Source of the DNA: Candidatus Kaiserbacteria bacterium
GTDB taxonomy: Bacteria > Patescibacteriota > Minisyncoccia > Phycocordibacterales > UBA2100
Length of the DNA stretch: 64,000 nt
Assembly: GCA_017134395.1 (NCBI GenBank)
Contig: CP070993.1
Coordinates: 526,199-590,198 of the forward strand
Direction of reading: 5' to 3'
The position numbers and the translations under genes were made by a program. Positions 345 through 36,893 of this stretch are shown here, one piece after another. The notes below the pieces were generated by a model that saw only the letters and a program-made list of their open reading frames with translations, ran no database searches and was not told where the DNA came from. Every line of letters starts with the position of its first letter. Position 1 is the first letter of the stretch.

Positions 345-1400
345 TTAGCGGACACGAACTCTATCTGCAAGTTCTGTAAGCGTTCGAGAGTCAGTTGTGA
401 TAGCGATGGCGTCATGCCCGATAAAAGCATACATTATACGGGCTACACCGTCTTCGTCATACAATATACGCACATCGATGTTGTCTATGACGGTGTCTTC
501 AAAGATGTTTGCTCCTGCTGCGATTGCTGGTTTTACAAATGATGAACGAGGACTAAAGAGAGGAAGTAAATCTTCCTCAATACTTTTTTCCCACGCGAGC
601 ATGCCTGCAAAAGCATGTCCATATGAGCGAGTGGTAAGCAAAAGGAATGGTGTATTTTCGTCAAGAACGTGGATACCGAGTACATAGTCTTCCGCGAGTG
701 TCTGTAGGAAGGTTATTGGAACTCGTGCTTGAATGGTTTCTAAAAAGTCTCTAGAACCTAGTCGTTCTATCGTTTCCTGCTCATCCTCTTCAGAAATCTT
801 TTCGGTGAGGTACAGCTCTACCATTGAACCAAGTGAGAAAAAAGTATTTCTTCGTACTGACGCGAGCAATTCTATTACATTTCGAGCTCGTACTCCGGTT
901 ACATCAACTCGCTCTTGCGCTTCGATGAAGATAAAGGATGAGGTAATTTGCTGTGTTGTAGGAGGGGCTGTATTAAGACGGTACGCATAATATGAACCTA
1001 AGGCAAATAAAGATGCAATGATAACGAATAAAATAGCTAGGAAAACAATCACCATCGTTTTTTTTGGTTCCTCTTCTATTTCTTCTCTGGGGCCGTCTTT
1101 TGCGCGTCGGTTGCTCTCCATTGCTGCAATGCGCGTTAGAGATGTTTTTTGGTCGCGCACCAGGTGTTGTATGTCATCTTTAAATGTATGAACAATCGCT
1201 TTGTTTTTTGAGGGTGCTTGCGTACGTATGCTCTCAGATTTCTGCACATCTGGCGCAGCTTTTAGAGGCTCAGGTGTTCCTTGTGTAGGTTCACTAGCTT
1301 CGTTTTTCTCCGTCGGTTTTTGGTTTTGATTCTGAGGCATGACGTTCGTTTGAAGTTGGTGGCATAACGCCCTTGTTTGATGCAAATTTTGGATCAACAT
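345..1400 (-). CDS. hypothetical membrane-anchored protein (low-complexity N-terminus, one TM helix, C-terminal extracytoplasmic domain); start uncertain because the ORF overlaps the pnp 3' end
   Basis: 351-aa ORF with a hydrophobic segment VIVFLAILFVIIASLFALGSYYAY; no family recognised; no clear SD at the candidate starts. Confidence 0.4.
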   Translation of the reverse strand: MLIQNLHQTRALCHQLQTNVMPQNQNQKPTEKNEASEPTQGTPEPLKAAPDVQKSESIRTQAPSKNKAIVHTFKDDIQHLVRDQKTSLTRIAAMESNRRAKDGPREEIEEEPKKTMVIVFLAILFVIIASLFALGSYYAYRLNTAPPTTQQITSSFIFIEAQERVDVTGVRARNVIELLASVRRNTFFSLGSMVELYLTEKISEEDEQETIERLGSRDFLETIQARVPITFLQTLAEDYVLGIHVLDENTPFLLLTTRSYGHAFAGMLAWEKSIEEDLLPLFSPRSSFVKPAIAAGANIFEDTVIDNIDVRILYDEDGVARIMYAFIGHDAIAITTDSRTLTELADRVRVR

Positions 1401-3465
1401 CTTTTATAGATAGGTTGATACGTTTCTTATCATCAATCTCTTTGATTATAACAGGAACACGCTCACCTTCTGCTATTACATCAGCGACTGAGTTAATACG
1501 GAACGGAGCCAATTCTGATATATGCACCAAGCCTTCTGTGTTTGCCCCGATACGCACGAATGCCCCGAAGTCCATTATTCGTGTTACTTCTCCGTCGAAT
1601 TTCTCCCCTGCTACGTATTCATGCGTTAGTTCCTCAATCATTTTGGCAGCTTCTTCTGCAGCACCGTTTTGTCCTGTTATAAACACAGAACCGTCATCTT
1701 CAATAGATATTTCTGTTGTTCCCGTTTGGTCTTTGATACCATTGATTGTTTTTCCTCCTGGGCCGATAACAAGACCAATTTGGTCTTCCTTGATTCGTAA
1801 TGAAATTATTTTTGGTGCGCGTGGATTAATATCAGCACGTGGCTCCGAGATTGCTTTGAGCATAACATCCATGATTTGCATTCGTGCTACCTTTGCTTGA
1901 GCAAATGCCTCAGCAAGTACAGGTACTGTTACTCCTGCTACCTTTACATCCATTTGTACTGCAGTTACACCCTCACTTGTTCCAGCTACCTTGAAATCCA
2001 TATCGCCAAAGTGGTCTTCTGGTCCTTGTATATCAGTAAGTATTTTGTAGTTCCCTTTCGTGTCACTCATCATACCCATTGCAATACCTGCTACTGGACG
2101 TTTGATGGGAACACCTGCGTCCATCAGAGCTAAGGTAGAACCACACACACTTGCTTGCGAACTAGAACCATTACTTGCCATTGTTTCAGAGACTATTCTG
2201 ATGGTATAAGGGAAATCTTCTTTGCTTGGCAATACGGGAAGAAGTGCTTTTTCAGCGAGCGCACCGTGACCTATCATTCGACGATTAAATCCACCAACAC
2301 GCCCTGTTTCTCCAACAGAGAACGGCGCGAAGTTGTAATGATGCATGTATCGTTTCTTCGAGTCTGGGAATTCAATGGTATTCATAAGCTGTGCATCGTC
2401 GGGGCCGCCAAGAGTAAGTGCGGAAAGAACGTGAGTACCACCACGGTAGAAGATACCTGTTCCATGAATAAGATCAGATATTCCTCCAGCTTGTGCGTAA
2501 AGGTCACGAATTTCGTCCATCTTCCGTCCATCTTGTCGACGATCGTTTTCAAGAGCTTCTACGTGTACGAACTTGTCCACTTGTATTTCAAAGTATGCAG
2601 CAGCGTTAGCTGCTTCTTCGGGTAGTTGTTCTTTTACTAAAGTCATCCATTCACTCTTTAATGCGTATGCTCCCTTTTCACCGAATACGTATTCCCCCAT
2701 TTTTGGTTCAACTTCATTCGAAAATAATGTTGAAACTGCTCCACTTGCCTCTTGTGTAGGAATCTCTTGCTTTTCTTTTCCAATTTCTTTTATGATACTT
2801 TTCTGCCATTCTTGGAGTGTATTGTGTACTGCAACAGCAGCGTCGAGTCCCTTAACGAGACGTTCTTCAGGAACTTCTTTTGAGCTAACTTCTACCATGT
2901 TGATATTTCCATCTTGACCACATGCTAAGAGGTCGAGAATCTCAACATCCGAAGTTCGCTGTGCGTAGGAAGGATTAATAATGAATGTCTCGTCATTTGC
3001 TACTTGCCCGATACGAACTGCACTCACTGGGCCGTCCCATGGGATGTCGGATGTACTTAATGCAAGTGATGCAGCAATAACTCCTAGCACGTCAGGATCT
3101 TCTTCGTCGATTGCTAAGACAGTTACAATTACCTGAATATCACGACGTAATGTTTGATCAAACAGTGGGCGGATGGTTCGGTCTACAACACGCGCCGAAA
3201 GCACCGCCTCTTCTGAAGGTCGCCCTTCGCGGCGCTGGAAACGACTTCCTAGGATTGCACCAGCTGCGTAGAATTTTTCTTCAAATTCTACCGATAATGG
3301 AAACCAATCCTGGCCGTCACGTTGTCCACCCATAACAGCCGTTGCCATAACAGCAGTGCTGCCATACCGTAAAATCACTGAACCACTTGCTTGGTCTGCT
3401 AAGTCTGTAAATTGAGCAGTAAGGGTTTTGCCTCCTACCTCAATTGAGTATTCTTTTTTTTGCAT
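1294..3465 (-). CDS. pnp: polyribonucleotide nucleotidyltransferase (PNPase)
   Basis: 723-aa ORF with two RNase PH-like halves plus KH and S1 domains (…GEKFDGEVTRIMDFGAFVRIG…); typical PNPase length and N-terminus. Confidence 0.95.
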   Translation of the reverse strand: MQKKEYSIEVGGKTLTAQFTDLADQASGSVILRYGSTAVMATAVMGGQRDGQDWFPLSVEFEEKFYAAGAILGSRFQRREGRPSEEAVLSARVVDRTIRPLFDQTLRRDIQVIVTVLAIDEEDPDVLGVIAASLALSTSDIPWDGPVSAVRIGQVANDETFIINPSYAQRTSDVEILDLLACGQDGNINMVEVSSKEVPEERLVKGLDAAVAVHNTLQEWQKSIIKEIGKEKQEIPTQEASGAVSTLFSNEVEPKMGEYVFGEKGAYALKSEWMTLVKEQLPEEAANAAAYFEIQVDKFVHVEALENDRRQDGRKMDEIRDLYAQAGGISDLIHGTGIFYRGGTHVLSALTLGGPDDAQLMNTIEFPDSKKRYMHHYNFAPFSVGETGRVGGFNRRMIGHGALAEKALLPVLPSKEDFPYTIRIVSETMASNGSSSQASVCGSTLALMDAGVPIKRPVAGIAMGMMSDTKGNYKILTDIQGPEDHFGDMDFKVAGTSEGVTAVQMDVKVAGVTVPVLAEAFAQAKVARMQIMDVMLKAISEPRADINPRAPKIISLRIKEDQIGLVIGPGGKTINGIKDQTGTTEISIEDDGSVFITGQNGAAEEAAKMIEELTHEYVAGEKFDGEVTRIMDFGAFVRIGANTEGLVHISELAPFRINSVADVIAEGERVPVIIKEIDDKKRINLSIKDVDPKFASNKGVMPPTSNERHASESKPKTDGEKRS

Positions 3466-3618
3466 ACGTCATTATTGCGTGATGCCTAAATTTCAGTATT
3501 ACACAATGCTTGCTCGAAATATGTGTACCACTGTGATCTAAACACCACAATTATTTATAACTACTTCGAACTCTATCAAATTCTCACTGTAACTCAAACG
3601 GTGTGTTAGACTTTTTGT

Positions 3619-5076: not shown

Positions 5077-5343
5077 TTACTTCTTTAATCCAAGTGCTTT
5101 TACGAGCTTGCCATATACTTTTGAGTCTTTGCTCTCAAGATACTTAAGGTGCTTGCGGCGATCCGCAACCATCTGTAGAAGACCTCGACGTGAGTGGTTA
5201 TCCTTATGGTTCTTTTTAAGGTGTGAAGCGAGTTCGTCGATACGTTTACTCAAAACTGCCACTTGTGCCTCTGGAGAACCAGTATCACCATCGTGTCGTT
5301 GTCCTTTTTTTAGAGCGTTAGCTTTTTGTCGTTTTGTAAGCAT
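5077..5343 (-). CDS. rpsO: 30S ribosomal protein S15
   Basis: MLTKRQKANALKK…GLLQMVADRRKHLKYL, 88 aa, canonical S15; pnp lies 1.6 kb away on the same strand with two genes between, a loose version of the usual rpsO-pnp linkage. Confidence 0.9.
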   Translation of the reverse strand: MLTKRQKANALKKGQRHDGDTGSPEAQVAVLSKRIDELASHLKKNHKDNHSRRGLLQMVADRRKHLKYLESKDSKVYGKLVKALGLKK

Positions 5344-5496
5344 GATATACACAAAATATGCCCGGTAATTGCTGTACGAGACAACATATCCGGACGTGAG
5401 ACAAATATAGCACAGTTTATATCTATTGGCAACCCCACCCCTCTCTTTTGCGGTTTGCGGGCATTATTACTCACTACTCATGATAAACTATGCATA

Positions 5497-6432
5497 ATGA
5501 GTTCTAGTCTCGAAAATAGTAAGCAAGAGTTCCTTGAATACCTAGAAATTGAGCGAGGGCGTGCTGTGAAGACAGTTGAAAACTATGATCGATACCTTGT
5601 TCGTTTTTTTGACCACACCAAAGTAAAGAACCCGAAAGATATAACTGAAACAAAAGTACGAGAATTCAGGCTTTGGCTTAACAGGCAAGTTACCCAAAAT
5701 GGAACAACAGTAAAGCGTAGAACACAAAACTATTATTTAATTGCTATTCGTGCATTTTTAAAGTTTTTACGAAAACGCGGTATCACGAGTCTTTCTCCTG
5801 AGCGTATTGAATTAGCAAAAGTTTCTCAGCGTGATCTTGATTTAATCACACGTAAAGAACTTCAGCGTCTTCTGGCTGCGCCAATGCGGGCGTATGAAGA
5901 GAGCGAAGATGAAGCAGTTAAATTACGGGCTATTCGTGACAATGCGATGTTACAACTCTTGTTTTCAACAGGCCTTCGTGTTTCAGAACTAACCTCACTA
6001 AATAGCGATATTGATCTTTCGAAAGATGAAATGTCAGTACGCGGTAAGGGTGACAAAGTGCGTGTTGTATTCTTTTCGCCCGAAGCAAAAAAAGCAGTTC
6101 AGAGATATTTAGATGAACGAAAAGATTTAGATGAAGCCCTGTTTGTAAATATGGGTCGCAACGCGAGCGAACACAATGATTTACGTCTTACTCCAAGAAG
6201 TGTGGAACGTGCAGTCAAACACTATGCAACTCGTGCTGGCATTACAAAAACAGTTACACCGCATGGCTTACGGCACAGTTTCGCAACCGATTTATTACAA
6301 AATGGAGCCGACATTCGTAGCGTGCAGGCACTACTTGGGCACGCTAATATTGCAACCACTCAAATATACACACACGTTACGGACAAACACCTTAAGGACA
6401 TTCACAGTAAGTTTCACAATAAAGGAAAGTAA
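5497..6432 (+). CDS. tyrosine site-specific recombinase, XerC/XerD type
   Basis: C-terminal catalytic motifs HGLRHSFATDLL … LLGHANIATTQIYTHV; N-terminal SAM-like domain (FLEYLEIERGRAVKTVENYDRYL). Confidence 0.85.
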   Translation: MSSSLENSKQEFLEYLEIERGRAVKTVENYDRYLVRFFDHTKVKNPKDITETKVREFRLWLNRQVTQNGTTVKRRTQNYYLIAIRAFLKFLRKRGITSLSPERIELAKVSQRDLDLITRKELQRLLAAPMRAYEESEDEAVKLRAIRDNAMLQLLFSTGLRVSELTSLNSDIDLSKDEMSVRGKGDKVRVVFFSPEAKKAVQRYLDERKDLDEALFVNMGRNASEHNDLRLTPRSVERAVKHYATRAGITKTVTPHGLRHSFATDLLQNGADIRSVQALLGHANIATTQIYTHVTDKHLKDIHSKFHNKGK

Positions 6433-6817: not shown

Positions 6818-7627
6818 ATGAGAATTGTTTCATGGAATGTAAACGGACTGCGAGCAGTGCATCGAAAAGGAAACTGGAATGACGTTTTTGCACTTAAGCC
6901 TGATGTTCTTTGTTTACAGGAAATAAAAGCACAAAAAGATCAGTTGCCTGATGATGTTACCGAAGTCGATGGGTTTCATGCGTACTTTAATTCATCACAA
7001 ACAAAGAAAGGTTATGCGGGTACAGCTTTGTACTCGAAAAGGAAACCGCTAAACGTTTCATATGGTTTACCAGACGATATAACTGAGAAACATAGTTTAC
7101 TTACTGATGGATATGGAGAGCCAAACAGAGAAGGGCGCGTGATAACAGCAGAGTTTCCTGAGGTTTTCGTAGTAACAGTGTATACACCTAACACCAAAGA
7201 TGATCTTTCGCGCCTTGAATTACGCCACAAACATTGGGACCCAGCGTTTCTCGAGTACTGTGTAACATTACAAAACAAGAAACCGGTCATATTCTGTGGT
7301 GATTTGAATGTTGCACACAAACCAATTGATCTCGCACGTCCTAAGGAAAATGAGGGGAATAAAGGCTTCACAGTACAAGAACGACAAGGAGTAGATAATA
7401 TGATAGAGGAGGGTTTCATAGACACACTGCGCATGTTTTTTGCTGATACCAAGGATTTATATACGTGGTGGAGTCCATGGAACGGTGCACGAGATCGTAA
7501 TGTTGGATGGCGCATTGATTACGTATTTGTGAGTGAGCAGTTAGAAGACATAGTGCAACATGCAGATATACATCCAGATATACACGGGTCTGACCACTGC
7601 CCGGTGTCGCTAGACGTAGAAATCTAA
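6818..7627 (+). CDS. xth: exodeoxyribonuclease III (AP endonuclease)
   Basis: MRIVSWNVNGLRA…LCLQE…; C-terminal GSDHCPV motif. Confidence 0.9.
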   Translation: MRIVSWNVNGLRAVHRKGNWNDVFALKPDVLCLQEIKAQKDQLPDDVTEVDGFHAYFNSSQTKKGYAGTALYSKRKPLNVSYGLPDDITEKHSLLTDGYGEPNREGRVITAEFPEVFVVTVYTPNTKDDLSRLELRHKHWDPAFLEYCVTLQNKKPVIFCGDLNVAHKPIDLARPKENEGNKGFTVQERQGVDNMIEEGFIDTLRMFFADTKDLYTWWSPWNGARDRNVGWRIDYVFVSEQLEDIVQHADIHPDIHGSDHCPVSLDVEI

Positions 7628-7725
7628 AGGACATTTTATAAAGGACAAATGTCCTTTAGCTCTAACGGACATTTATCCACAAGGACATAGAAAATGTCCT
7701 TTATACATTGTATAATGTCCGATAG
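7625..7725. repeat. GGACAT/ATGTCC palindromic repeat module, copy A
   Basis: taaaggacatttt / ataaaggacaaatgtcctttag / ctctaacggacattt / aaggacatagaaaatgtcctttat / taatgtccgat; same block as at 10410-10511 and 11930-11997. Confidence 0.7.
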
Positions 7726-7992
7726 ATCGTTCTTTAGGATAAAGTTAAGTTCTTTTCCGTTCTTTATAGTGTCTTCATGTGTTGTAAACAAAACAAAAAA
7801 CACACACAAACTCCGTACAATATGCGTACACACGATGTGAAATCGTTTACGTATAAACAAGGAACACTTTCCTTGTTAAAACAATCAGCACGGTAGGCAC
7901 AAAAAATAAGCAAAAACCACCTCTGGGAAGCCTTGAGGATTCGCACAGAAAAAACCGCGAATCAACAAATATAGCGTATCACCCACATTATC

Positions 7993-8016
7993 GAGACCGC
8001 CTTTAGGCGGTTTTTG
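7993..8016. terminator. intrinsic terminator-like hairpin
   Basis: gagaccgcctttaggcggtttttg. Confidence 0.5.
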
Positions 8017-8022
8017 CGTACT

Positions 8023-8060
8023 AAAAATCCTCCGCTTAGTTTTCTAAGTGGAGGATTTTT
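8023..8060. terminator. intrinsic terminator downstream of cca (bidirectional hairpin)
   Basis: aaaaatcctccgcttag-tttt-ctaagtggaggattttt. Confidence 0.6.
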
Positions 8061-8064
8061 AGAG

Positions 8065-9528
8065 CTAGGATACGTGATGCTTTTTTCGAAGCGCTTCTAT
8101 TTCTTTTTCGTCCTCTTCTTCCCTTCTGTCTTTTCCTTTTTCTCCAAGTTTTTGTAACTCGTTTATTGGCAATTGAGCTAATTCAGCAGCCCTGTCTTCA
8201 AGGTATTCAGGGGTGTTTTGTTTTGGCTCATCAAGAACCTCTTCAAGAAGTGCATGGAGTATCCATCCTACTTTTGGTCCTGGCCCGTCACCTAATATTT
8301 CAATAATTTTGTCGCCATTAATTTTGAGCATAGCAACTGAAATAGGATCACGAAGCGCTTCGTCAACCATGGATTTGTATTTGCGAAAACGAAATGGTTG
8401 TTCTTTTGGCCGGCCCGTACCAATGCGATCGCAGGTGCGTAATTCAAGCAGTTCCTGAATGTGGTCAACTCCAACATTTTGTATCATTCGACGAACTGCA
8501 CTGAGAGTTATTTGGTCAGGGTCGGAGAAAAACATATGCCAACGGACGAGCTTCTCTACGTTGTGTGCAGTATCTTTTGGAAATTTCAAGTCTCTTAATA
8601 TTTTGCGTGTCATACGCGCTCCAATAACTTCGTGCCCATAGAATGTGTAATCATTTTTTACTGTGTCACGACGTCGGCTTTCTGGTTTCCCTATGTCGTG
8701 TAGTAATGCAGCAAGGCGTACATCAAAAGAATAGTTTTTGTCTGCGGCATGCTGTAGGCTGCGCATAAGGTGTTCGAACACATCGTATGAATGCGCTTGG
8801 TTTTGCTCACATCCAATACCCTCTTTGAGTTCAGGAATGATGTATTCCATTAATCCTAAGCGTTGTGCAAAAAATACTGCCTGCATCGGCGTGTCTGATG
8901 CAACGATTCGCATGAGCTCGTCTCGTACGCGTTCTTGAGAAACTTTTTCAATAAGCTGCGCATGCTCTGCTATTGCCGAGGCAGTTTTTGATTCGATTGT
9001 GAAGTTGAGCTCAGCTGCAAGGCGTATTGCACGCATCATACGTAGTGCGTCCTCTGTAAAACGATCTGTAGCTTCCCCGACAGTAACAATACGTTTTAAT
9101 CGTATGTCCTCTACCCCTTTATATGGGTCTACAAGCTCGTCGCGCGTTGGATTGTATGCTATGGCATTCATCGTGAAATCACGTCGCTGTAGGTCGTCTG
9201 TGAGATTCTTGCTAAATGTTACTTCATCAGGATGGCGCGCGTTGCTGTATGTTGATTCGATTCTATAAGGGGTCACCTCGACCACTTTGAGCGTGGGGTC
9301 GTCAGACTCCGTTTTTACACCGACAGTCCCAAAATCATTTTCATAGAAAGAATCAGGAAATATTTTTTGAATTTCCTCAGGGTTAGCGTTTGTAGTAAGA
9401 TCCCAATCTTTAGGAATCTTGTTGCGTATAAGATCGCGCGTACAACCCCCTACGAGGTATGCTTCGAAACCAGCATTCTCTAATGTCGTAACAATGGTAA
9501 GAACTTCTTGCGGTACAGAGTGTCTCAT
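8065..9528 (-). CDS. cca: CCA-adding tRNA nucleotidyltransferase (pol-beta NTase head plus HD domain)
   Basis: N-terminal GGCTRDLI… NTase motif, HD motif LLHDIGK; 487 aa. Confidence 0.85.
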   Translation of the reverse strand: MRHSVPQEVLTIVTTLENAGFEAYLVGGCTRDLIRNKIPKDWDLTTNANPEEIQKIFPDSFYENDFGTVGVKTESDDPTLKVVEVTPYRIESTYSNARHPDEVTFSKNLTDDLQRRDFTMNAIAYNPTRDELVDPYKGVEDIRLKRIVTVGEATDRFTEDALRMMRAIRLAAELNFTIESKTASAIAEHAQLIEKVSQERVRDELMRIVASDTPMQAVFFAQRLGLMEYIIPELKEGIGCEQNQAHSYDVFEHLMRSLQHAADKNYSFDVRLAALLHDIGKPESRRRDTVKNDYTFYGHEVIGARMTRKILRDLKFPKDTAHNVEKLVRWHMFFSDPDQITLSAVRRMIQNVGVDHIQELLELRTCDRIGTGRPKEQPFRFRKYKSMVDEALRDPISVAMLKINGDKIIEILGDGPGPKVGWILHALLEEVLDEPKQNTPEYLEDRAAELAQLPINELQKLGEKGKDRREEEDEKEIEALRKKHHVS

Positions 9529-9586
9529 TGCTCAATTGTAGTACACCTATTGCTATGAAGCGAATATACCGTATGATTGCCAACAC

Positions 9587-9658
9587 GCACCCGTGGTGAA
9601 ATGGATATCATTACGGTCTTCGGAACCGTCGTTGGGGGTTCGAGTCCCTCCGGGTGCA
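9587..9658 (+). tRNA. tRNA-Arg (anticodon TCG), no encoded CCA
   Basis: hand-folded cloverleaf: acceptor GCACCCG/CGGGTGC, D-stem GTGA/TCAT, anticodon stem ACGGT/ACCGT with loop CTTCGGA, T-arm GGGGG-TTCGAGT-CCCTC. Confidence 0.8.
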
Positions 9659-9723
9659 CAAATGGCCGCCCACAAAGCATTGCTTTGTGGGCGTTTGCCA
9701 TTTCCACACCCGGAGGGACTCGA
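9639..9723. repeat. ~85-bp imperfect palindrome containing the tRNA-Arg 3' end and its inverted copy around an inner hairpin
   Basis: ttcgagtccctccgggtg…cgcccacaaagca|ttgctttgtgggcg…cacccggagggactcgaa; also makes mirrored artefact ORFs on both strands. Confidence 0.75.
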
Positions 9724-9948
9724 AAAGAGTCGTCGGTATACAAGATAATGAAGCGAAGCGAAATTAGGCTTGTCGGCGACGTCGGGGCAGCGAGTACTTA
9801 GCAAGGCCGCAGCCGAGCTTAGTACTGGCGCCGAGTCCCCACTTTGTAAGAGGTCATGAAGGCGTCAGGAAAATTATTCGTGACCGAGTCCCTCCCCCAC
9901 TTCACAAAATTGCACCACGCCTAATTTGATATATAATCACTCTCACTT

Positions 9949-9977
9949 GCGGCTATATGAAACAAGCATATAGCCGC
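9949..9977. repeat. hairpin formed by a copy of the first 9-11 nt of tRNA-Gly(GCC) and its complement
   Basis: gcggctatatg-aaacaag-catatagccgc; tcaCttgcggctata here versus tcaTttgcggctata at the real tRNA 5' end (10104-10118). Confidence 0.6.
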
Positions 9978-10109
9978 GGCGTTCAGACACAATGTCTACG
10001 CAAAGCGCATTGATGTCCCCCGATTTCACGTTCTTGTAAGCGAGCTTCCAGAAACATGAAATCGGAGCACATCTTTCTGCAAAATGCAGAAGCGCTCTGC
10101 TCTTCATTT

Positions 10110-10180
10110 GCGGCTATAGTTTAGTGGTATGACACGTCCTTGCCAAGGATGAGACGGGAGTTCGATTCTCCCTAGCCGCA
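10110..10180 (+). tRNA. tRNA-Gly (anticodon GCC), no encoded CCA
   Basis: acceptor GCGGCTA/TAGCCGC, anticodon stem CGTCC/GGATG with loop TTGCCAA, T-arm GGGAG-TTCGATT-CTCCC. Confidence 0.9.
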
Positions 10181-10181
10181 C

Positions 10182-10228
10182 AAATACACAGAAAGACTAG
10201 GTTCTCGCCTAGTCTTTCTGTGTATTTA
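10182..10228. terminator. hairpin immediately after tRNA-Gly
   Basis: aaatacacagaaagactagg-ttctcg-cctagtctttctgtgtattt (20-bp arms). Confidence 0.6.
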
Positions 10229-10350
10229 GGCATTGTGCATAGAGAATCGAAAGACGGAAGCCTGCGTGCCTAAGCACGAGTAAGGGCTGAGTCCGGCCTG
10301 GAGCACTTAGTAGAATTAAGCCTGAAAGGCGCAAATTATACTTAGTGACT

Positions 10351-10372
10351 GGAGGCGATTCTCCCTAGAAAA
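10351..10372. repeat. partial direct copy of the tRNA-Gly(GCC) T-arm and 3' end
   Basis: ggaggCGATTCTCCCTAGaaaa shares the 13-mer cgattctccctag with tRNA-Gly 10163-10175. Confidence 0.6.
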
Positions 10373-10409
10373 CTGACCAATTCTGGCCAGTTTATACTCG
10401 GAAGGTTTT

Positions 10410-10511
10410 TTAAAGGACAAAATTTGTTGATAACTCTGGGGATAGGTGGATAAAGGACATTTCTAACGGACATAAAAATGTCCGTTATCCCCAAAAATGT
10501 CCTTTATCAAC
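10410..10511. repeat. GGACAT/ATGTCC palindromic repeat module, copy B
   Basis: taaaggacaaaattt … ataaaggacatttctaacggacataaaaatgtccgttat … aaaaatgtcctttatc. Confidence 0.7.
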
Positions 10512-10608
10512 AGACTTATGAACAGTTTTATCTTATTTGTGCACATTTGTGTTTCATAAGAAACAATATGAACTTTTCCTAGTATTAGAGCCATTTAACT
10601 CTTCCACA

Positions 10609-10628
10609 TGTTTTCACGTGAAAACATA
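10609..10628. repeat. TTTCACGTGAAA palindromic unit (copy 1)
   Basis: atgttttcacgtgaaaacat, a 20-bp palindrome with a CACGTG core. Confidence 0.7.
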
Positions 10629-10747
10629 GAGAAGATTTAGGACAAGAATGGATGTTGAGGGTGTGAAACAAGCGGGTTCAAAATGACATATTTTCTCTAT
10701 TTTTGCACGTTTGGCCCTAGTTAGTGTGACTTACTGTACTTATTAGT

Positions 10748-10764
10748 ATTTCACGTGAAACTAT
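10748..10764. repeat. TTTCACGTGAAA palindromic unit (copy 2), abutting the 3' end of the K+ channel gene
   Basis: atttcacgtgaaactatg. Confidence 0.7.
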
Positions 10765-11549
10765 GAAGTGAGTGAAGAATGCTTGTGTTTAACTGGCTCA
10801 CCACAGTGTTTACATCGGATTGCGTCGATATCATGAGCGCTTAAGCCACAATTTGGGCATGTATAGTGCACTTTTGCCCCATGAAATATAGTTCTCGTAA
10901 GTTGCAAAAAGAGGGTAATACCTATAAGCATAGCCACCACAGAGAGCATTTTGCCCCACGGTCCTGCAGCTGTGACGTCACCATAGCCAGTTGTTGTAAG
11001 GGTGGAAACAGTGAAGTATAGTGCATCAAGGTAGGAATTTATATGTGGATTGAATTGTGCTTCAGCAACAAAGACTATGGCTGTCATTATTGCGAGAAAC
11101 ACAAAGAAGTTGAGTAGACTTTCAAGAGTTGCGCTGTATTGGTAGATAGTTTTGCTCTCTTTTTTGGCTAAATTCACCAAGTAGTAGGTGCGAAGGATCT
11201 TGAGTGAGCGCAAAACTCGCAAAAGTGCCAAGTTTCCTACCAAAAGTGGTGCAAAGAGTGAGACAATGACTAAAATATCTATTACGCTAAAGACGTTAAA
11301 GACAAACGAGAGCCTTCGGGGTGAAATCCATAAGCGCGCAAGATACTCTAAGAGGAAAAGAGTACCAAATACAATTTCCAGCACCTTCGTGAAAGAATGT
11401 CCTGGATTTGCAGCTTCTAATAGGAAAATGCCAAAAACTGCTACGTTTAAGAGGATAAGCACCCGGTTAAAGATAATGCTTTTACGAGTGCGCTTGTGAA
11501 AGAGAGTAGTGAGTTGCTTTTTTACTTTGGGAAAAGAACTTTTCTTCAT
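10761..11549 (-). CDS. voltage-gated-type (6TM) potassium channel with C-terminal zinc-ribbon
   Basis: K+ selectivity filter TLTTTGYGDVT; S4-like LALLRVLRSLKILR with arginines at every third position; C-terminal CPNCG…CKHCG. Confidence 0.85.
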   Translation of the reverse strand: MKKSSFPKVKKQLTTLFHKRTRKSIIFNRVLILLNVAVFGIFLLEAANPGHSFTKVLEIVFGTLFLLEYLARLWISPRRLSFVFNVFSVIDILVIVSLFAPLLVGNLALLRVLRSLKILRTYYLVNLAKKESKTIYQYSATLESLLNFFVFLAIMTAIVFVAEAQFNPHINSYLDALYFTVSTLTTTGYGDVTAAGPWGKMLSVVAMLIGITLFLQLTRTIFHGAKVHYTCPNCGLSAHDIDAIRCKHCGEPVKHKHSSLTS

Positions 11550-11562
11550 TACAATATGCTAG

Positions 11563-11580
11563 CATAGTTTCACGTGAAAT
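11563..11580. repeat. TTTCACGTGAAA palindromic unit (copy 3) in the 32-bp divergent intergenic region
   Basis: catagtttcacgtgaaat directly upstream of the yraN ATG, next to palindrome atgctagcat. Confidence 0.7.
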
Positions 11581-11581
11581 C

Positions 11582-11968
11582 ATGAGTAGAAACAAAGATA
11601 TTGGGAATACTGGAGAGCACATAGCCGCACGTTTTTTAGAGACGAAGGGGTTTTCTATTTTAGGTAAGAATTACAGCAAGAAATGGGGTGAACTCGACAT
11701 TATTGCTAAGAAAGAAGGAGTAGTGCATTTTGTGGAAGTAAAAACAATTTCACGTGAAACTCAAAACATAGTTTCACGTGAAAATAATTCTGCGTATAGA
11801 GCGGAAGAGAATATGCATAAGAAAAAGATAGAGCGTTTACATAGGGCTATTCAGAGTTATATAGAGGAGTTCAATGTAAAAGAGGATTGGCAGTTAGATT
11901 TAGTGACTGTAGTTCTTTTTATAAAGGACAAAAAAGCTGAGTGTCGATTTGTAGAAAATGTCCTTTAG
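11582..11968 (+). CDS. yraN: YraN-family (UPF0102) endonuclease-like protein
   Basis: EHIAARFLETKGFSILGKNY…GELDIIAKKEGVVHFVEVK; contains an in-frame tandem insertion of the palindromic unit. Confidence 0.75.
   Translation: MSRNKDIGNTGEHIAARFLETKGFSILGKNYSKKWGELDIIAKKEGVVHFVEVKTISRETQNIVSRENNSAYRAEENMHKKKIERLHRAIQSYIEEFNVKEDWQLDLVTVVLFIKDKKAECRFVENVL
11747..11785. repeat. two tandem TTTCACGTGAAA units (copies 4 and 5) inside the yraN coding sequence
   Basis: atttcacgtgaaactcaaaacatagtttcacgtgaaaat, translated in frame as ISRETQNIVSREN. Confidence 0.75.
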
Positions 11969-11997
11969 ATTATAAAGGACATTCTTACGGACATTTT
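11930..11997. repeat. GGACAT/ATGTCC palindromic repeat module, copy C (overlaps the yraN 3' end)
   Basis: ataaaggacaaaaaa … gaaaatgtcctttagattataaaggacattcttacggacatttta. Confidence 0.7.
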
Positions 11998-12150
11998 AAA
12001 TAGAGAATTCAGTGCTGCACAAGATAATAAAGAGACTCAGACCTATGATCTAATATATTGGAAGAATGAAGAAATGTGTGCAATAATGCCCCCGACCCAA
12101 AAGCACTCATTGTTTCATTAGTGTTCGTAACTGAATGGGTCATACGCTAT

Positions 12151-12224
12151 CGGGGCGTAGCATAGTGGTAGTGTACTCGCTTTGGGAGCGAGCGGTCCGA
12201 GTTCGATTCTCGGCGCCCCGACCA
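12151..12224 (+). tRNA. tRNA-Pro (anticodon TGG) with encoded CCA
   Basis: acceptor CGGGGCG/CGCCCCG, anticodon stem CTCGC/GCGAG with loop TTTGGGA, T-arm CCGAG-TTCGATT-CTCGG, 3' ACCA. Confidence 0.9.
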
Positions 12225-12236
12225 AAATCTTAAAGT

Positions 12237-12260
12237 CCATGCGCAGCATGGGCTTTTTAG
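12237..12260. terminator. intrinsic terminator after tRNA-Pro
   Basis: cccatgcgcagcatggg followed by cttttt. Confidence 0.6.
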
Positions 12261-12535
12261 ATTCTAATTTGTATATCTGCAGTAGAGAAACTTGACAGTA
12301 TTATGGCTGGCAGTATCTTATATATATGCACGTGAACATACATAAGATTATATTTCTGAATCTGATTGGTCTCAGCGAGGCATCTGTGTGGGTACGAGTA
12401 TAAATATAAAAAATTTTAAACTCAAGCACCCGCACAAAGCGGGCTTTTTGTTTGGTTTTTCAGTCAGTGTATATAACGTTTTGGTATGTACTGACTGGGG
12501 AAGCAATGAGGCTTTTTCAGAAAAAGGAGGTCAAT

Positions 12536-12721
12536 ATGACCGAAAGAGAACGACATTCGGAGGACCCCGTCCTAACCACCAATGGGATTGATGGTATGAG
12601 TGAGGGGGATGAATTGGACAAACCCAACGAAAATACTGCGCCTGTAGTACATAAATTGGGATGGGATCCGGAAGAGCCGGGTGAGAATCTTTCAGACAAA
12701 CGCTGTCGTTTAGGCGGCTGA
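12536..12721 (+). CDS. small acidic hypothetical protein (61 aa)
   Basis: strong SD AAAGGAGG 6 nt before the ATG; followed by a terminator at 12730-12768; sequence MTERERHSEDPVLTT…. Confidence 0.45.
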   Translation: MTERERHSEDPVLTTNGIDGMSEGDELDKPNENTAPVVHKLGWDPEEPGENLSDKRCRLGG

Positions 12722-36299: not shown

Positions 36300-36893
36300 T
36301 TATGTATTTGCAAAACGTTGTGTTGCAACATCCCAATTGAGATTTTTGAGGAACGCCTCAACATGTTGAGCCTTTTCTGCAGGTAAATAATCAATCATGT
36401 ATGCGTGTTCCCACATGTCTGCAGTAAGAAGTATATCTACGTCCGCGAGCATGCCAAGCTCGTGGTCTGCCGTCCACCATACATGAGGAGTATTACTACT
36501 TTTGTCCCACCCGAGTGTTGTCCATCCAGAACCGCGGCTCATGGCAACACTCTTAAAGTGTGTAATGAAGTCCTCCCAACTTCCGTATTTTTCGGCAACT
36601 GCTGTTTCAAGTGCAGTGCCACGGGGTTCATCTGTTTTTCCACCTACCCACTGTGAAAAGTAGAGTTCGTGCATGCGCATACCATTAAATTCGAATCCTA
36701 AACGACGACGGACTGACTCAATAGCAAATGCATATTTTTCAGAATCTTCTTTAGTAAGATCTGCTATTTGTTCTCGTAGAAGGTTGATGTGTTTCACATA
36801 CCCATTGTACAAGCCAACATGCACTTCTAATTGTTTTTCTGAGATCCCTTCCATTTCTGGGAAATTAAATGTTTGAGTTTCGTATGCGTGCAT
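36300..36893 (-). CDS. sodA: Fe/Mn superoxide dismutase
   Basis: C-terminal DMWEHAYMIDY metal-ligand motif, N-terminal helical-hairpin His region, ~197 aa. Confidence 0.85.
   Translation of the reverse strand: MHAYETQTFNFPEMEGISEKQLEVHVGLYNGYVKHINLLREQIADLTKEDSEKYAFAIESVRRRLGFEFNGMRMHELYFSQWVGGKTDEPRGTALETAVAEKYGSWEDFITHFKSVAMSRGSGWTTLGWDKSSNTPHVWWTADHELGMLADVDILLTADMWEHAYMIDYLPAEKAQHVEAFLKNLNWDVATQRFANT

Follow-up and report, generated by a model that had tools for sequence, protein, structure and literature searches.

Half-site arrays around cca, tRNA, yraN and xth genes of Patescibacteria: candidate operators of a winged-helix protein encoded beside ftsK and recA

Described systems and a candidate binding protein

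Owing to its flexible linker, AraC recognizes half-sites that face the same way or opposite ways and whose distance varies, and the BlaI/MecI/CopY and ArsR-type repressors, LexA, and the Avd/S23 (23S rRNA intervening-sequence) proteins are further described systems that each resemble, in part, the one considered here. Patescibacteria (CPR bacteria) cannot be grown alone, and almost nothing is known of their gene regulation and chromosome organization. We analyzed a 64-kb stretch of a Candidatus Kaiserbacteria chromosome (hereafter, the window), in which a half-site with the consensus t(a/c)TAA(a/c)GGACA(t) occurs 16 times in three clusters; it represents a cis-element kept in dozens of diverged Patescibacteria genomes. 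As judged from sequence, the clusters are most likely arrays of ~10-nt recognition sites for a sequence-specific Patescibacteria protein, and the likeliest binder would be a 250-300 aa winged-helix (wHTH) protein, a link that we infer from promoter footprints and gene neighbourhood.

The promoter of this candidate's gene is the second conserved locus of the motif. The gene is always divergent from ftsK-orf-recA, and the gene order was invariant in the genomes examined (recA<-orf<-ftsK<->wHTH->PG-binding protein). In 9/10 genomes, drawn from distant lineages, half-site arrays, or TGTCC-N10-GGACA as a palindrome that encloses TATA(T/A)AAT, lie 5-10 nt before the wHTH start codon, the bracketed TATAAT box itself being 6-7 nt from the ATG. 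The motif thus occupies the candidate's own promoter across lineages and overlaps core promoter elements, as is expected of an autoregulated operator. The regulator ORF itself carries 6-9 half-sites, located on conserved peptide motifs. Neither the window nor any of the cca loci described below contains the gene, and its presence in the window organism is presumed from relatives.

The candidate comes from a large unannotated family (at least 1684 members, with nearly all of the 120 listed lacking a name), and its predicted architecture is unusual: the AF2 model contains a confident N-terminal Avd-like four-helix bundle (residues 28-118) and a confident C-terminal winged helix (residues 192-268), joined by a disordered linker of 50-100 aa. 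Using Foldseek, the best matches of the bundle were 2gsc, 2rld and 4dwl (Avd), while the winged helix matched ArsR, CopR and BlaI-type domains. TIGR02436 and PF05635 matched the bundle weakly, and none of the family models run on the candidate protein reached its threshold. Although the Avd/S23 proteins are thus its best fold matches, they are stand-alone bundles of ~110 aa with no wHTH, and we know of no Avd/S23 protein that is fused to a DNA-binding domain or has a defined DNA motif. The bundle might be pentameric, by analogy with Avd and given the five chains (A-E) of 2gsc and 2rld among the matches; a pentamer stoichiometry behind the cluster sizes was rejected, as the sizes are not multiples of five.

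The likeness to BlaI/MecI/CopY and ArsR-type repressors lies in the C-terminal domain, whose matches to the BlaI, CopR and ArsR wHTH domains are weak, and in the inverted repeat that brackets the TATAAT of the candidate's own gene; the xACAT..ATGTx core of the half-sites resembles TACA/TGTA, the box type of BlaI and CopY. Unlike these repressors, the candidate has an Avd-like bundle at its N-terminus instead of their dimerization module, and its putative half-sites come in arrays of 4-9, free in orientation and spacing, and occur also inside ORFs. Its predicted linker likens it to AraC, from which it differs in fold and family, and in that a higher oligomer is suspected rather than a dimer. 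As to LexA, ftsK is SOS-inducible in E. coli, and a presumably autoregulated factor with sites adjoining recA and ftsK is reminiscent of the SOS system. However, no S24 peptidase domain was detected in the candidate, its second target is a tRNA/cca/yraN/xth hub and not a repair regulon, and the Gram-positive-type LexA box, GAAC-N4-GTTC, was found neither in the window nor, at 10 loci, in front of ftsK, recA or the regulator gene. For Patescibacteria, Sanchez-Osuna et al. (2017, as cited in PMC8565304) have described a LexA network.

Half-site clusters in the window

The first-pass annotation had reported a GGACAT/ATGTCC module at three loci of the window. The module is real, its positions had been given to within a few bases, and the neighbouring genes (xth, tRNA-Gly, the K+ channel gene, yraN and tRNA-Pro) had been assigned correctly (Table 1); an exact-protein look-up of YraN returned no record. 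The DnaA boxes of clusters 1 and 2 and the parS cores between the clusters had escaped that annotation. AAAGGACA occurs 13 times in the window compared to 2.8 expected, a number reached in 0/100 shuffles, with 10 of the 13 copies inside the three clusters, and ACGGACAT occurs 7 times compared to 1.5 expected, with 4 copies inside them. Of the 90 GGACA/TGTCC pentamers found across the 64 kb, 16 are packed into 303 bp. Pairs of cores 0-20 nt apart all fall in the clusters, except for one pair in the Int ORF (6381) and a chance pair at 36503, and no paired half-sites were seen in intergenic DNA of the window outside the three clusters. The conserved block that all three loci had been said to share, TAAAGGACATT(T)CT(A/T)ACGGACAT, is complete in clusters 2 (10451-10473) and 3 (11973-11994) and only partial in cluster 1.

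Table 1. Positions of the half-site clusters and associated features in the window
Feature	Position	Strand	Remarks
Tyrosine recombinase (Int ORF)	5326-6432		neighbour of the clusters
xth	6818-7627
Cluster 1	7625-7724		7 half-sites; after the xth stop
Cluster 1 half-sites	7625-7634(+), 7639-7648(+), 7649-7658(-), 7663-7672(+), 7679-7688(+), 7694-7703(-), 7715-7724(-)
Perfect DnaA box TTATCCACA	7673-7681	(+)	in cluster 1; sole perfect box in 64 kb
Promoter-like TAGAAA-17-TATAAT	7688-7716	(+)	in cluster 1; consensus match only
Single half-site AGGACATA	9104-9111	(-)	inside cca
tRNA-Gly(gcc)	10110-10181
Cluster 2	10411-10512		5 half-sites; nested palindrome, flanked by tRNA-Gly(gcc) and the 3' end of the K+ channel gene
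Cluster 2 half-sites	10411-10420(+), 10451-10460(+), 10464-10473(+), 10478-10487(-), 10497-10506(-)
DnaA-like boxes of cluster 2	10425-10433(-), 10445-10453(-), 10485-10493(+), 10504-10512(+)		one mismatch each; interleaved with half-sites
TTTCACGTGAAA palindromes (parS core)	10612, 10749, 11568, 11748, 11772		five perfect; between clusters
K+ channel gene	10761-11549	(-)
yraN	11582-11968
Cluster 3	11922-11994		4 half-sites; yraN 3' end
Cluster 3 half-sites	11922-11931(+), 11958-11967(-), 11973-11982(+), 11985-11994(+)		first two in the yraN last codons/stop, last two downstream
tRNA-Pro	12151-12224

The half-sites of cluster 1 are kept in a Kaiserbacteria relative, L036, though the non-coding DNA around them diverges. 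The perfect DnaA box of this cluster is sandwiched by two half-sites (TAACGGACAT-TTATCCACA-aGGACAT), and the promoter-like element beside it holds one half-site in its spacer, while another overlaps the end of its -10 box. This element faces a 280-nt conserved non-coding stretch (7730-8015); nhmmer run with the putative sRNA (7726-8020) found a match in L036 only, leaving a widely conserved RNA at this position unsupported. Reading the half-site itself as a promoter -10 element (TATAAA-GGACA) was also rejected, because TCTAAA or TCTAAC takes the place of TATAAA in half of them. In the window, cluster 2 lies upstream of no annotated gene, and promoter-like sites for tRNA-Pro are found ~65-160 nt downstream of cluster 3.

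Several half-site pairs could fold into hairpins of 7-10 bp (e.g., 7639-7658 and 10464-10487), and stop codons precede clusters 1 and 3, features that would suit palindromes acting in RNA, as terminators or other hairpins of the xth, tRNA-Gly and yraN transcripts. We consider such a role highly improbable. The stems are not followed by T-tracts, and a terminator scan found no G+C-rich stem-loop with a T-run in the clusters. Searching Rfam at gathering and permissive thresholds, four tRNAs alone passed, the matches in the clusters being to miRNA models at chance level. The sites also lie upstream of genes and within ORFs. Moreover, the orthologous arrays of other genomes are often pure direct repeats (eight half-sites in one orientation in L125; likewise L046 and L106) with spacing that ranges from 0 to ~20 nt, and thus no structure is conserved.

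Conservation of the arrays at the cca/tRNA/yraN/xth hub

According to the first-pass annotation, a lack of further copies and of conservation of the block in related genomes would point to a local duplication; clearly, the opposite was found. In 93 of the 101 Patescibacteria loci examined, half-site arrays sit at syntenic places near cca, tRNA-Arg/Gly/Pro, yraN and xth. Across 89 cca loci, half-site density is 0.80 per kb compared to 0.12 expected, and peaks within cca (+400..500), between cca and xth (+1700..2100) and around the tRNA genes and yraN, and in an unbiased count of 9-mers in 45 cca-xth gaps, the top-ranking strings were TAAAGGACA (30/45) and TGTCCTTTA (28/45). Half-sites come in groups of 4-9, and their number, order and spacing vary. 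Some genomes that possess the regulator, such as L110, have few half-sites at the cca hub.

When genomes were scanned with the two-site block, the overall number of loci was close to chance, and about 13 of them were in Patescibacteria. Multi-site clusters were found in Patescibacteria only, and each belonged either to the cca/tRNA/yraN/xth hub or to the ftsK-recA/regulator promoter, the two kinds of putative target locus; the other ~37 loci were single matches, at the number that chance predicts. A scan of viral sequences yielded mostly collagen-like coding repeats, and a single viral contig (L181), whose array looks genuine, has no homologues of the regulator or of the hub genes. When the literature was searched for the motif strings, or for studies of CPR origins or regulons, primers or unrelated papers came up.

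Most relatives carry 2-9 half-sites at a loop motif of cca, the same motif on which the single cca half-site of the window sits (V-E-D-I in the window, Q-K-D-I-K-D-K in relatives). At this loop, K-D is encoded AAGGAC in 62/83 cases, while outside the loop these genes use that spelling in 7/39 cases (p=3.6e-9), and K-G-H inside cca is spelled AAAGGACAT in 21/30 cases. The half-site is maintained within the cca reading frame through synonymous-codon selection, providing a case of putative binding sites preserved inside coding sequence by codon choice.

Parts of the hub do vary between genomes. As the first-pass annotation had hinted for the channel-yraN segment, the K+ channel gene occurs only in the window and in its closest relative, L036, and yraN and the tRNA-Gly, tRNA-Arg and tRNA-Pro genes differ in order or orientation. 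In addition, fragments of tRNA 3' ends surround the tRNA genes, 43 loci keep a tyrosine recombinase gene alongside, and in L009, L021 and L031 the array has been inserted or expanded in frame within cca. All of these would be in line with the clusters being MITE/REP-like repeat copies, or the termini or attachment sites of an element with which the channel-yraN segment arrived, perhaps acted upon by the recombinase. We nevertheless find this very unlikely, as the arrays are syntenic even where cca proteins are only 50-60% identical and also where the channel gene is lacking. Only the 10-nt half-site is common to the copies, which have no fixed length, termini or target duplications, and neither a defined unit with terminal inverted repeats nor many dispersed copies were found, the motif being confined to two loci per genome. 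As for a Xer/dif-type system, the number and spacing of the half-sites are unlike the 11-6-11 core of dif, arrays persist without an adjacent recombinase gene (in the same L009, L021 and L031), and the ftsK locus has no such gene; the recombinase may nevertheless bind the arrays. The proposal of a mobilized unit flanked by two copies finds no support in the form given: the arrays are ancestral to the locus, being present in genomes without the channel gene.

The module had been likened at first to either a multi-site operator or a small dispersed repeat family. The former is favoured by syntenic conservation of non-coding arrays in dozens of diverged genomes and by the palindrome over the -10 box of the wHTH gene, while the latter is unsupported, given clustered matches at only two kinds of locus and the lack of constant length, termini and target duplications. 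With a probability of roughly 60%, we propose that the arrays are operators for an autoregulated, probably multivalent, winged-helix factor encoded beside ftsK-recA. The four-helix bundle of this factor would oligomerize, and each of its flexibly tethered winged helices would read one half-site; half-sites could consequently be used in either orientation, 0 to ~20 nt apart and in groups of 4-9. Bound to both half-sites of its own promoter, the protein would mask the TATAAT box between them, leading to autorepression (we infer both the oligomeric state and the repression). The arrays of the window would likewise occupy the promoter-like site of cluster 1 and the DNA ahead of tRNA-Pro, and at the DnaA boxes that they adjoin or overlap (clusters 1 and 2), the factor and DnaA may compete or cooperate. 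The position of cluster 2, upstream of no annotated gene, the many sites within ORFs, and arrays bigger than ordinary operators would fit a nucleoid, centromere or origin protein equally well.

DnaA boxes, parS cores and a possible origin

Perfect DnaA boxes number 103 over 948 kb, compared to 7.2 expected, and are concentrated at two syntenic spots flanking cca (-500..0 and +1500..2000); a perfect box is present at the syntenic xth/cca 3' gap in 30/83 loci. A composite of DnaA box and half-site recurs: 26 of 115 boxes are followed by a half-site at a distance of 3-4 nt, and often a further one precedes the box by 1-2 nt. In both L036 and the window the arrangement is symmetric (DnaA boxes, > > < <, DnaA boxes). 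The parS core is present in 65 copies at the cca loci, compared to 0.9 expected, all beside or inside cca and yraN. Along the locus, a negative GC skew becomes positive both in the window and in 11/18 long loci, a change that is confounded by the conserved divergent gene orientation and read from stretches too short to place an origin. Furthermore, TGTCC is common to the half-site and the TTGTCCACA-type boxes of some loci.

Such features raise the possibility that the hub is a replication origin, or an origin-linked DnaA-assembly region, in which the GGACAT sites serve a DnaA-gating regulator or are themselves lineage-specific low-affinity DnaA sites. We regard this as possible but unlikely. 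Searches by motif regex and by tblastn with an approximate E. coli DnaA query found no dnaA within 10 kb at any locus or, for the window, within 52 kb. Genes of the window mainly switch strand at 23.5 kb and not at 8-12 kb, an AT-rich unwinding element or DnaA-trio was not identified at the hub, and the motif recurs at the ftsK/regulator promoter, where DnaA boxes are mostly absent. Read as aTGTCCTTT, the half-site matches just 4-5/9 DnaA-box positions and is missing the CACA end, compared to the 7-8/9 positions and CCACA of a DnaA box. Likewise, the GGACAT sites are dissimilar to the 16-bp parS palindrome, tGTTtCACGTGAAAca.

In abutting or overlapping DnaA boxes at fixed short distances, the half-sites resemble those of CtrA (Caulobacter Cori), Spo0A (0A-boxes, B. 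subtilis oriC), MtrA and HP1021, and the presence of the motif at the ftsK-recA promoter would also suit a cell-cycle regulator. Unlike these regulators, the candidate has no response-regulator domain, its motif and protein are unrelated to theirs, and the hub is only a putative origin. A more elaborate version, which we also hold to be doubtful, would see the cca-tRNA-yraN-xth hub as the origin and centromere of Paceibacteria-type CPR chromosomes, situated away from dnaA, with the bundle-wHTH protein gating DnaA access and coupling initiation to segregation and repair via sites at its own and the ftsK-recA promoters. The interlocking DnaA boxes, parS sites and half-sites form a conserved landmark, one that could locate the CPR origin or centromere and thereby aid genome curation and metagenomic estimates of replication rate. 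Within this landmark, the cluster 2 module is near-identical in the window and in L036, and the DnaA boxes of L036 are nearer to consensus.

Half-site arrays at a conserved gene hub

The three GGACAT clusters claimed in the first-pass annotation were seen on reading positions 7000-12600, where its gene calls around them also proved correct, and all three are built from one short element, a half-site of about 10 nt with a GGACA core (TGTCC in reverse). All sixteen sites conform to (C/A)TAA(A/C)GGACA(T/A)TT. Across the arrays examined, here and in relatives, spacings are 12-14 nt in direct repeats, 0, 2, 6 or 7 nt in GGACA..TGTCC pairs and 10-17 nt in TGTCC..GGACA pairs. The window contains 13 copies of AAAGGACA where 2.8 are expected, 10 of them inside the clusters, and 7 of ACGGACAT where 1.5 are expected (4 inside). 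Elsewhere in the 64 kb, the only cores lying 20 nt or less apart are a pair in a recombinase ORF (6381) and a chance pair (36503). Cluster 1 overlaps a promoter-like site directed into a non-coding stretch, and promoter-like sites of tRNA-Pro lie just downstream of cluster 3; cluster 2 is upstream of no annotated gene in the window, and its module lies between tRNA-Gly(gcc) and the yraN start in most relatives.

Table. Features in and around the half-site clusters (window positions)
Feature	Position (strand)	Content	Setting
Tyrosine recombinase, Xer-like	5326-6432 (+)	start probably near 5498
GGACA core pair	6381-6400		last recombinase codons
Cluster 1	7625-7724	seven half-sites	3' of xth
Perfect DnaA box	7673-7681		inside cluster 1
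Promoter-like site	7688-7716	TAGAAA-17-TATAAT	overlapped by cluster 1
Non-coding stretch	7730-8015 (+)	~280 nt	cluster 1 to cca 3' end
Intragenic half-site	9104-9111		cca
tRNA-Arg trailer	9634-9900	inverted copy 9697-9724; T-arm copy 9885-9895
tRNA-Gly 5' fragment	9949-9977	hairpin
tRNA-Gly(gcc) trailer	10156-10375	inverted copy ~10245; T-arm copy 10356-10368
Cluster 2	10411-10512	five half-sites	between tRNA-Gly(gcc) and K+ channel gene 3' end
parS-like palindrome	10550-10565	TGTTTCATAAGAAACA	adjoins cluster 2
parS cores (10612-11783)	10612-10623, 10749-10760, 11568-11579, 11748-11759, 11772-11783	TTTCACGTGAAA
K+ channel gene	10761-11549 (-)	Ion_trans + C-terminal zinc ribbon
Cluster 3	11922-11994	four half-sites	overlaps last yraN codons, upstream of tRNA-Pro
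tRNA-Pro 3'-like fragment	~12088-12103

We scanned one genome per species (596 Gb) for TAAAGGACAT-N4-6-ACGGACAT and obtained 50 loci, about the chance number for 596 Gb; some 13 were from Patescibacteria, and multi-site clusters were confined to these. Ten loci shared the window neighbourhood of pnp, NYN, cca, yraN, xth and four tRNAs (tRNA-Arg(tcg), tRNA-Gly(gcc), tRNA-Pro(tgg) and tRNA-Gly(tcc)). In the closest, Candidatus Kaiserbacteria NORP88 (L036; protein identity 78-80%), all three modules were kept almost base for base, and the non-coding DNA around them had diverged. Scanning metagenomes with cca as the anchor brought in 80 more loci. The order of this hub is remarkably constant: rny, tRNA-Gly(tcc), a trypsin-like protease, tRNA-Pro, yraN, parS, a DnaA box, tRNA-Gly(gcc), tRNA-Arg and cca, followed by half-sites with a DnaA box, xth, recombinase, rpsO, NYN and pnp. 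Over 89 loci (948 kb), half-site density was 0.80 per kb against 0.12 expected, with peaks within cca (+400..500), 250-650 nt past the cca stop and in the tRNA/yraN region; clustered cores were present in 93 of 101 CPR loci. The position matrix reads t(a/c)TAA(a/c)GGACA(t), and an unbiased count in 45 cca-xth gaps ranked TAAAGGACA, TGTCCTTTA and TGTGGATAA, the last a DnaA box, as the top 9-mers. We regard the clusters as putative conserved protein-binding arrays with high confidence (a probability of roughly 0.85).

The earlier proposal that the modules are a mobile repeat or bracket a mobilised unit did not hold up: the arrays are syntenic and ancestral, have only the half-site in common and occur at two loci only. 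Rearrangement does take place in the hub, where yraN and the tRNA genes change position between genomes, and the K+ channel gene, found in the window and L036 only among 94 related loci, is a lineage-specific insertion.

Three other identities were considered. RNA hairpins or terminators were rejected, since the clusters have no T-runs, conserved structure or Rfam match, and many arrays are purely direct. LexA boxes were rejected as well, the motif GAAC-N4-GTTC being absent from the window and from the DNA upstream of ftsK, recA and the candidate binder gene in 10 loci. Recombinase sites are improbable, as arrays remain where no recombinase gene is adjacent.

Several neighbouring features are recorded here in their own right. 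The non-coding stretch beside cluster 1 is strongly conserved in L036 (pieces ACACACACAAACTCCG and GCGAATCAA.AAATATAGCGTATCACCCA) and terminates at GAGACCGCCTTTAGGCGGTTTTT, a terminator. It resembles a small RNA that has escaped annotation, putatively driven by the promoter-like site in cluster 1; it had no Rfam match, and nhmmer matched L036 only. The Xer-like recombinase gene keeps its place near xth, cca and rpsO in 43 related loci, which suggests that its product is a housekeeping enzyme encoded within the hub; its last codons contain the core pair. The tRNA-Arg and tRNA-Gly(gcc) trailers have the same arrangement, a perfect hairpin followed by an inverted copy of the tRNA 3' end and, 190-245 nt further, a direct 11-13 nt copy of the T-arm, with ..CTTAGT(G)ACTGG.G.CGA.TC.CC. 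in common. These and the other tRNA fragments may be what is left of inverted duplications that have decayed; such an origin would account for the differing orientation of these tRNA genes from genome to genome.

Half-sites inside the cca reading frame

The CCA-adding enzyme of many relatives has a loop with the sequence ..SKGH..GQKDIKDK..; in L009, L021 and L031 this loop is extended by an insertion of 45-50 aa in which KGH and NVLY abound. The loop's K-D was coded AAG-GAC in 62 of 83 cases versus 7 of 39 where that context recurs outside the loop in these genes (Fisher p = 3.6e-9), and K-G-H was coded AAAGGACAT in 21 of 30 against ~11% expected from codon usage. Given these biases, the intragenic half-sites are maintained at the nucleotide level, under selection as DNA. 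The window cca retains one.

A second array locus with a candidate binding protein

Four of the Patescibacteria matches from the genome scan had no cca context; in each of them the array sat between an ftsK-orf-recA operon and a divergently oriented ORF of 250-300 aa without a Pfam family, and the identical neighbourhood was found in six further genomes. Directly 5' of the ATG of this ORF, which encodes a predicted winged-helix protein that we call the regulator, Paceibacteria carry TGTCC-(t/g)ATATATAAT-GGACA-(g/a)ATG, and L028, L046 and L005 carry TGTCCTTTATATAAAGGACA and further sites. In both arrangements a -10 box lies 6-7 nt from the start codon with a half-site on either side, each matching the window half-sites exactly, and 9 of 10 genomes have such a bracketed box, which by its layout would be the classical footprint of an autoregulated repressor. 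The regulator ORF itself contains 6-9 sites, on the conserved peptide motifs VTDI, LRTLG, SDI, MSFL, KGH and IKDIK. In L131 and L133-L137, ftsK and recA are always separated by a conserved ORF of 117-145 aa, which gave a weak Glucodextran_B-like match, and the regulator gene is always followed by one for a protein of 1060-1240 aa that contains a PG_binding_1 domain.

The regulator family comprises at least 1684 proteins at E <= 1e-3; among the 120 members listed, nearly all lack a name or are called 'hypothetical', and where a source is named it is mostly Paceibacterota, Nomurabacteria or Minisyncoccia. HMM matches were weak. In an AlphaFold model, residues 28-118 form a four-helix bundle predicted with confidence, and a disordered linker (~120-190) connects it to a winged helix (192-268). 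Foldseek matched the bundle to Xcc0516 (2gsc), BT_0352 (2rld), with five chains (A-E) each, and the diversity-generating-retroelement protein Avd (4dwl), and the C-terminal domain to ArsR, CopR, BlaI and Z-alpha-type winged helices. Avd is a pentamer. If the bundle is oligomeric, its flexibly tethered winged helices would recognise half-sites whichever way these point and over a range of spacings, and the protein would gain affinity from arrays. Neither the window nor any cca locus encodes a family member; in one 560-kb contig, the regulator gene lies ~78 kb from the hub. The full explanation, with the regulator as candidate binder, is one that we favour at somewhat better than even odds.

An operator array with a winged-helix factor is a known kind of system. 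The literature searched contains no account of the motif, of the protein family or of an origin in CPR bacteria, and the way the protein is built, the restriction to two loci, the presence of sites within ORFs and their interlocking with DnaA boxes and parS are not known from earlier systems.

Seven direct TGTCCTTTA(T/C) sites, spaced at 12-14 nt, also occur in a 1.2-kb non-coding gap of a viral contig (L181, IMGVR_UViG_3300031227_004534, 3504-3589) in which neither the regulator nor any hub gene has a homologue. The contig may come from a phage that infects these bacteria and exploits the host factor, or the sites may be unrelated iterons.

DnaA boxes and parS cores at the hub

The first-pass annotation overlooked the sole perfect DnaA box of the window, inside cluster 1, four one-mismatch boxes within 90 bp in cluster 2, and, within a span of 1.2 kb, five perfect copies of the palindrome TTTCACGTGAAA, which we take to be the core of the parS consensus. 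Among the related loci, perfect DnaA boxes number 103 against 7.2 expected and are concentrated at two syntenic spots flanking cca. In 26 of 115 boxes TGTCCTTTA follows after 3-4 nt, and AAGGACA often precedes these boxes; L036 has a central half-site palindrome with three boxes per side. The parS core occurs 65 times over 89 loci against 0.9 expected. One window core lies 3 nt 5' of the yraN ATG and two lie in the yraN ORF (VSRE.. peptides); in relatives, cores are also found within cca, and one overlaps the yraN start codon, which is why the protein begins MFHVK.. there. The hub could be the replication origin or the centromere, where the GGACAT factor would modulate DnaA, but we consider this unlikely. 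No dnaA gene lies in the window, or within 10 kb in any locus. GC skew is negative on entering the locus and positive on leaving it, a signal confounded by the conserved divergent gene orientation.

The parS-like palindrome next to cluster 2 has a changed centre and is kept base for base in L036. In two other Patescibacteria (L033 and L035), cca carries in-frame insertions coding ..VSRE(T).. (alignment columns 74-130), parS written into the enzyme, which parallel the GGACAT insertions of L009, L021 and L031.
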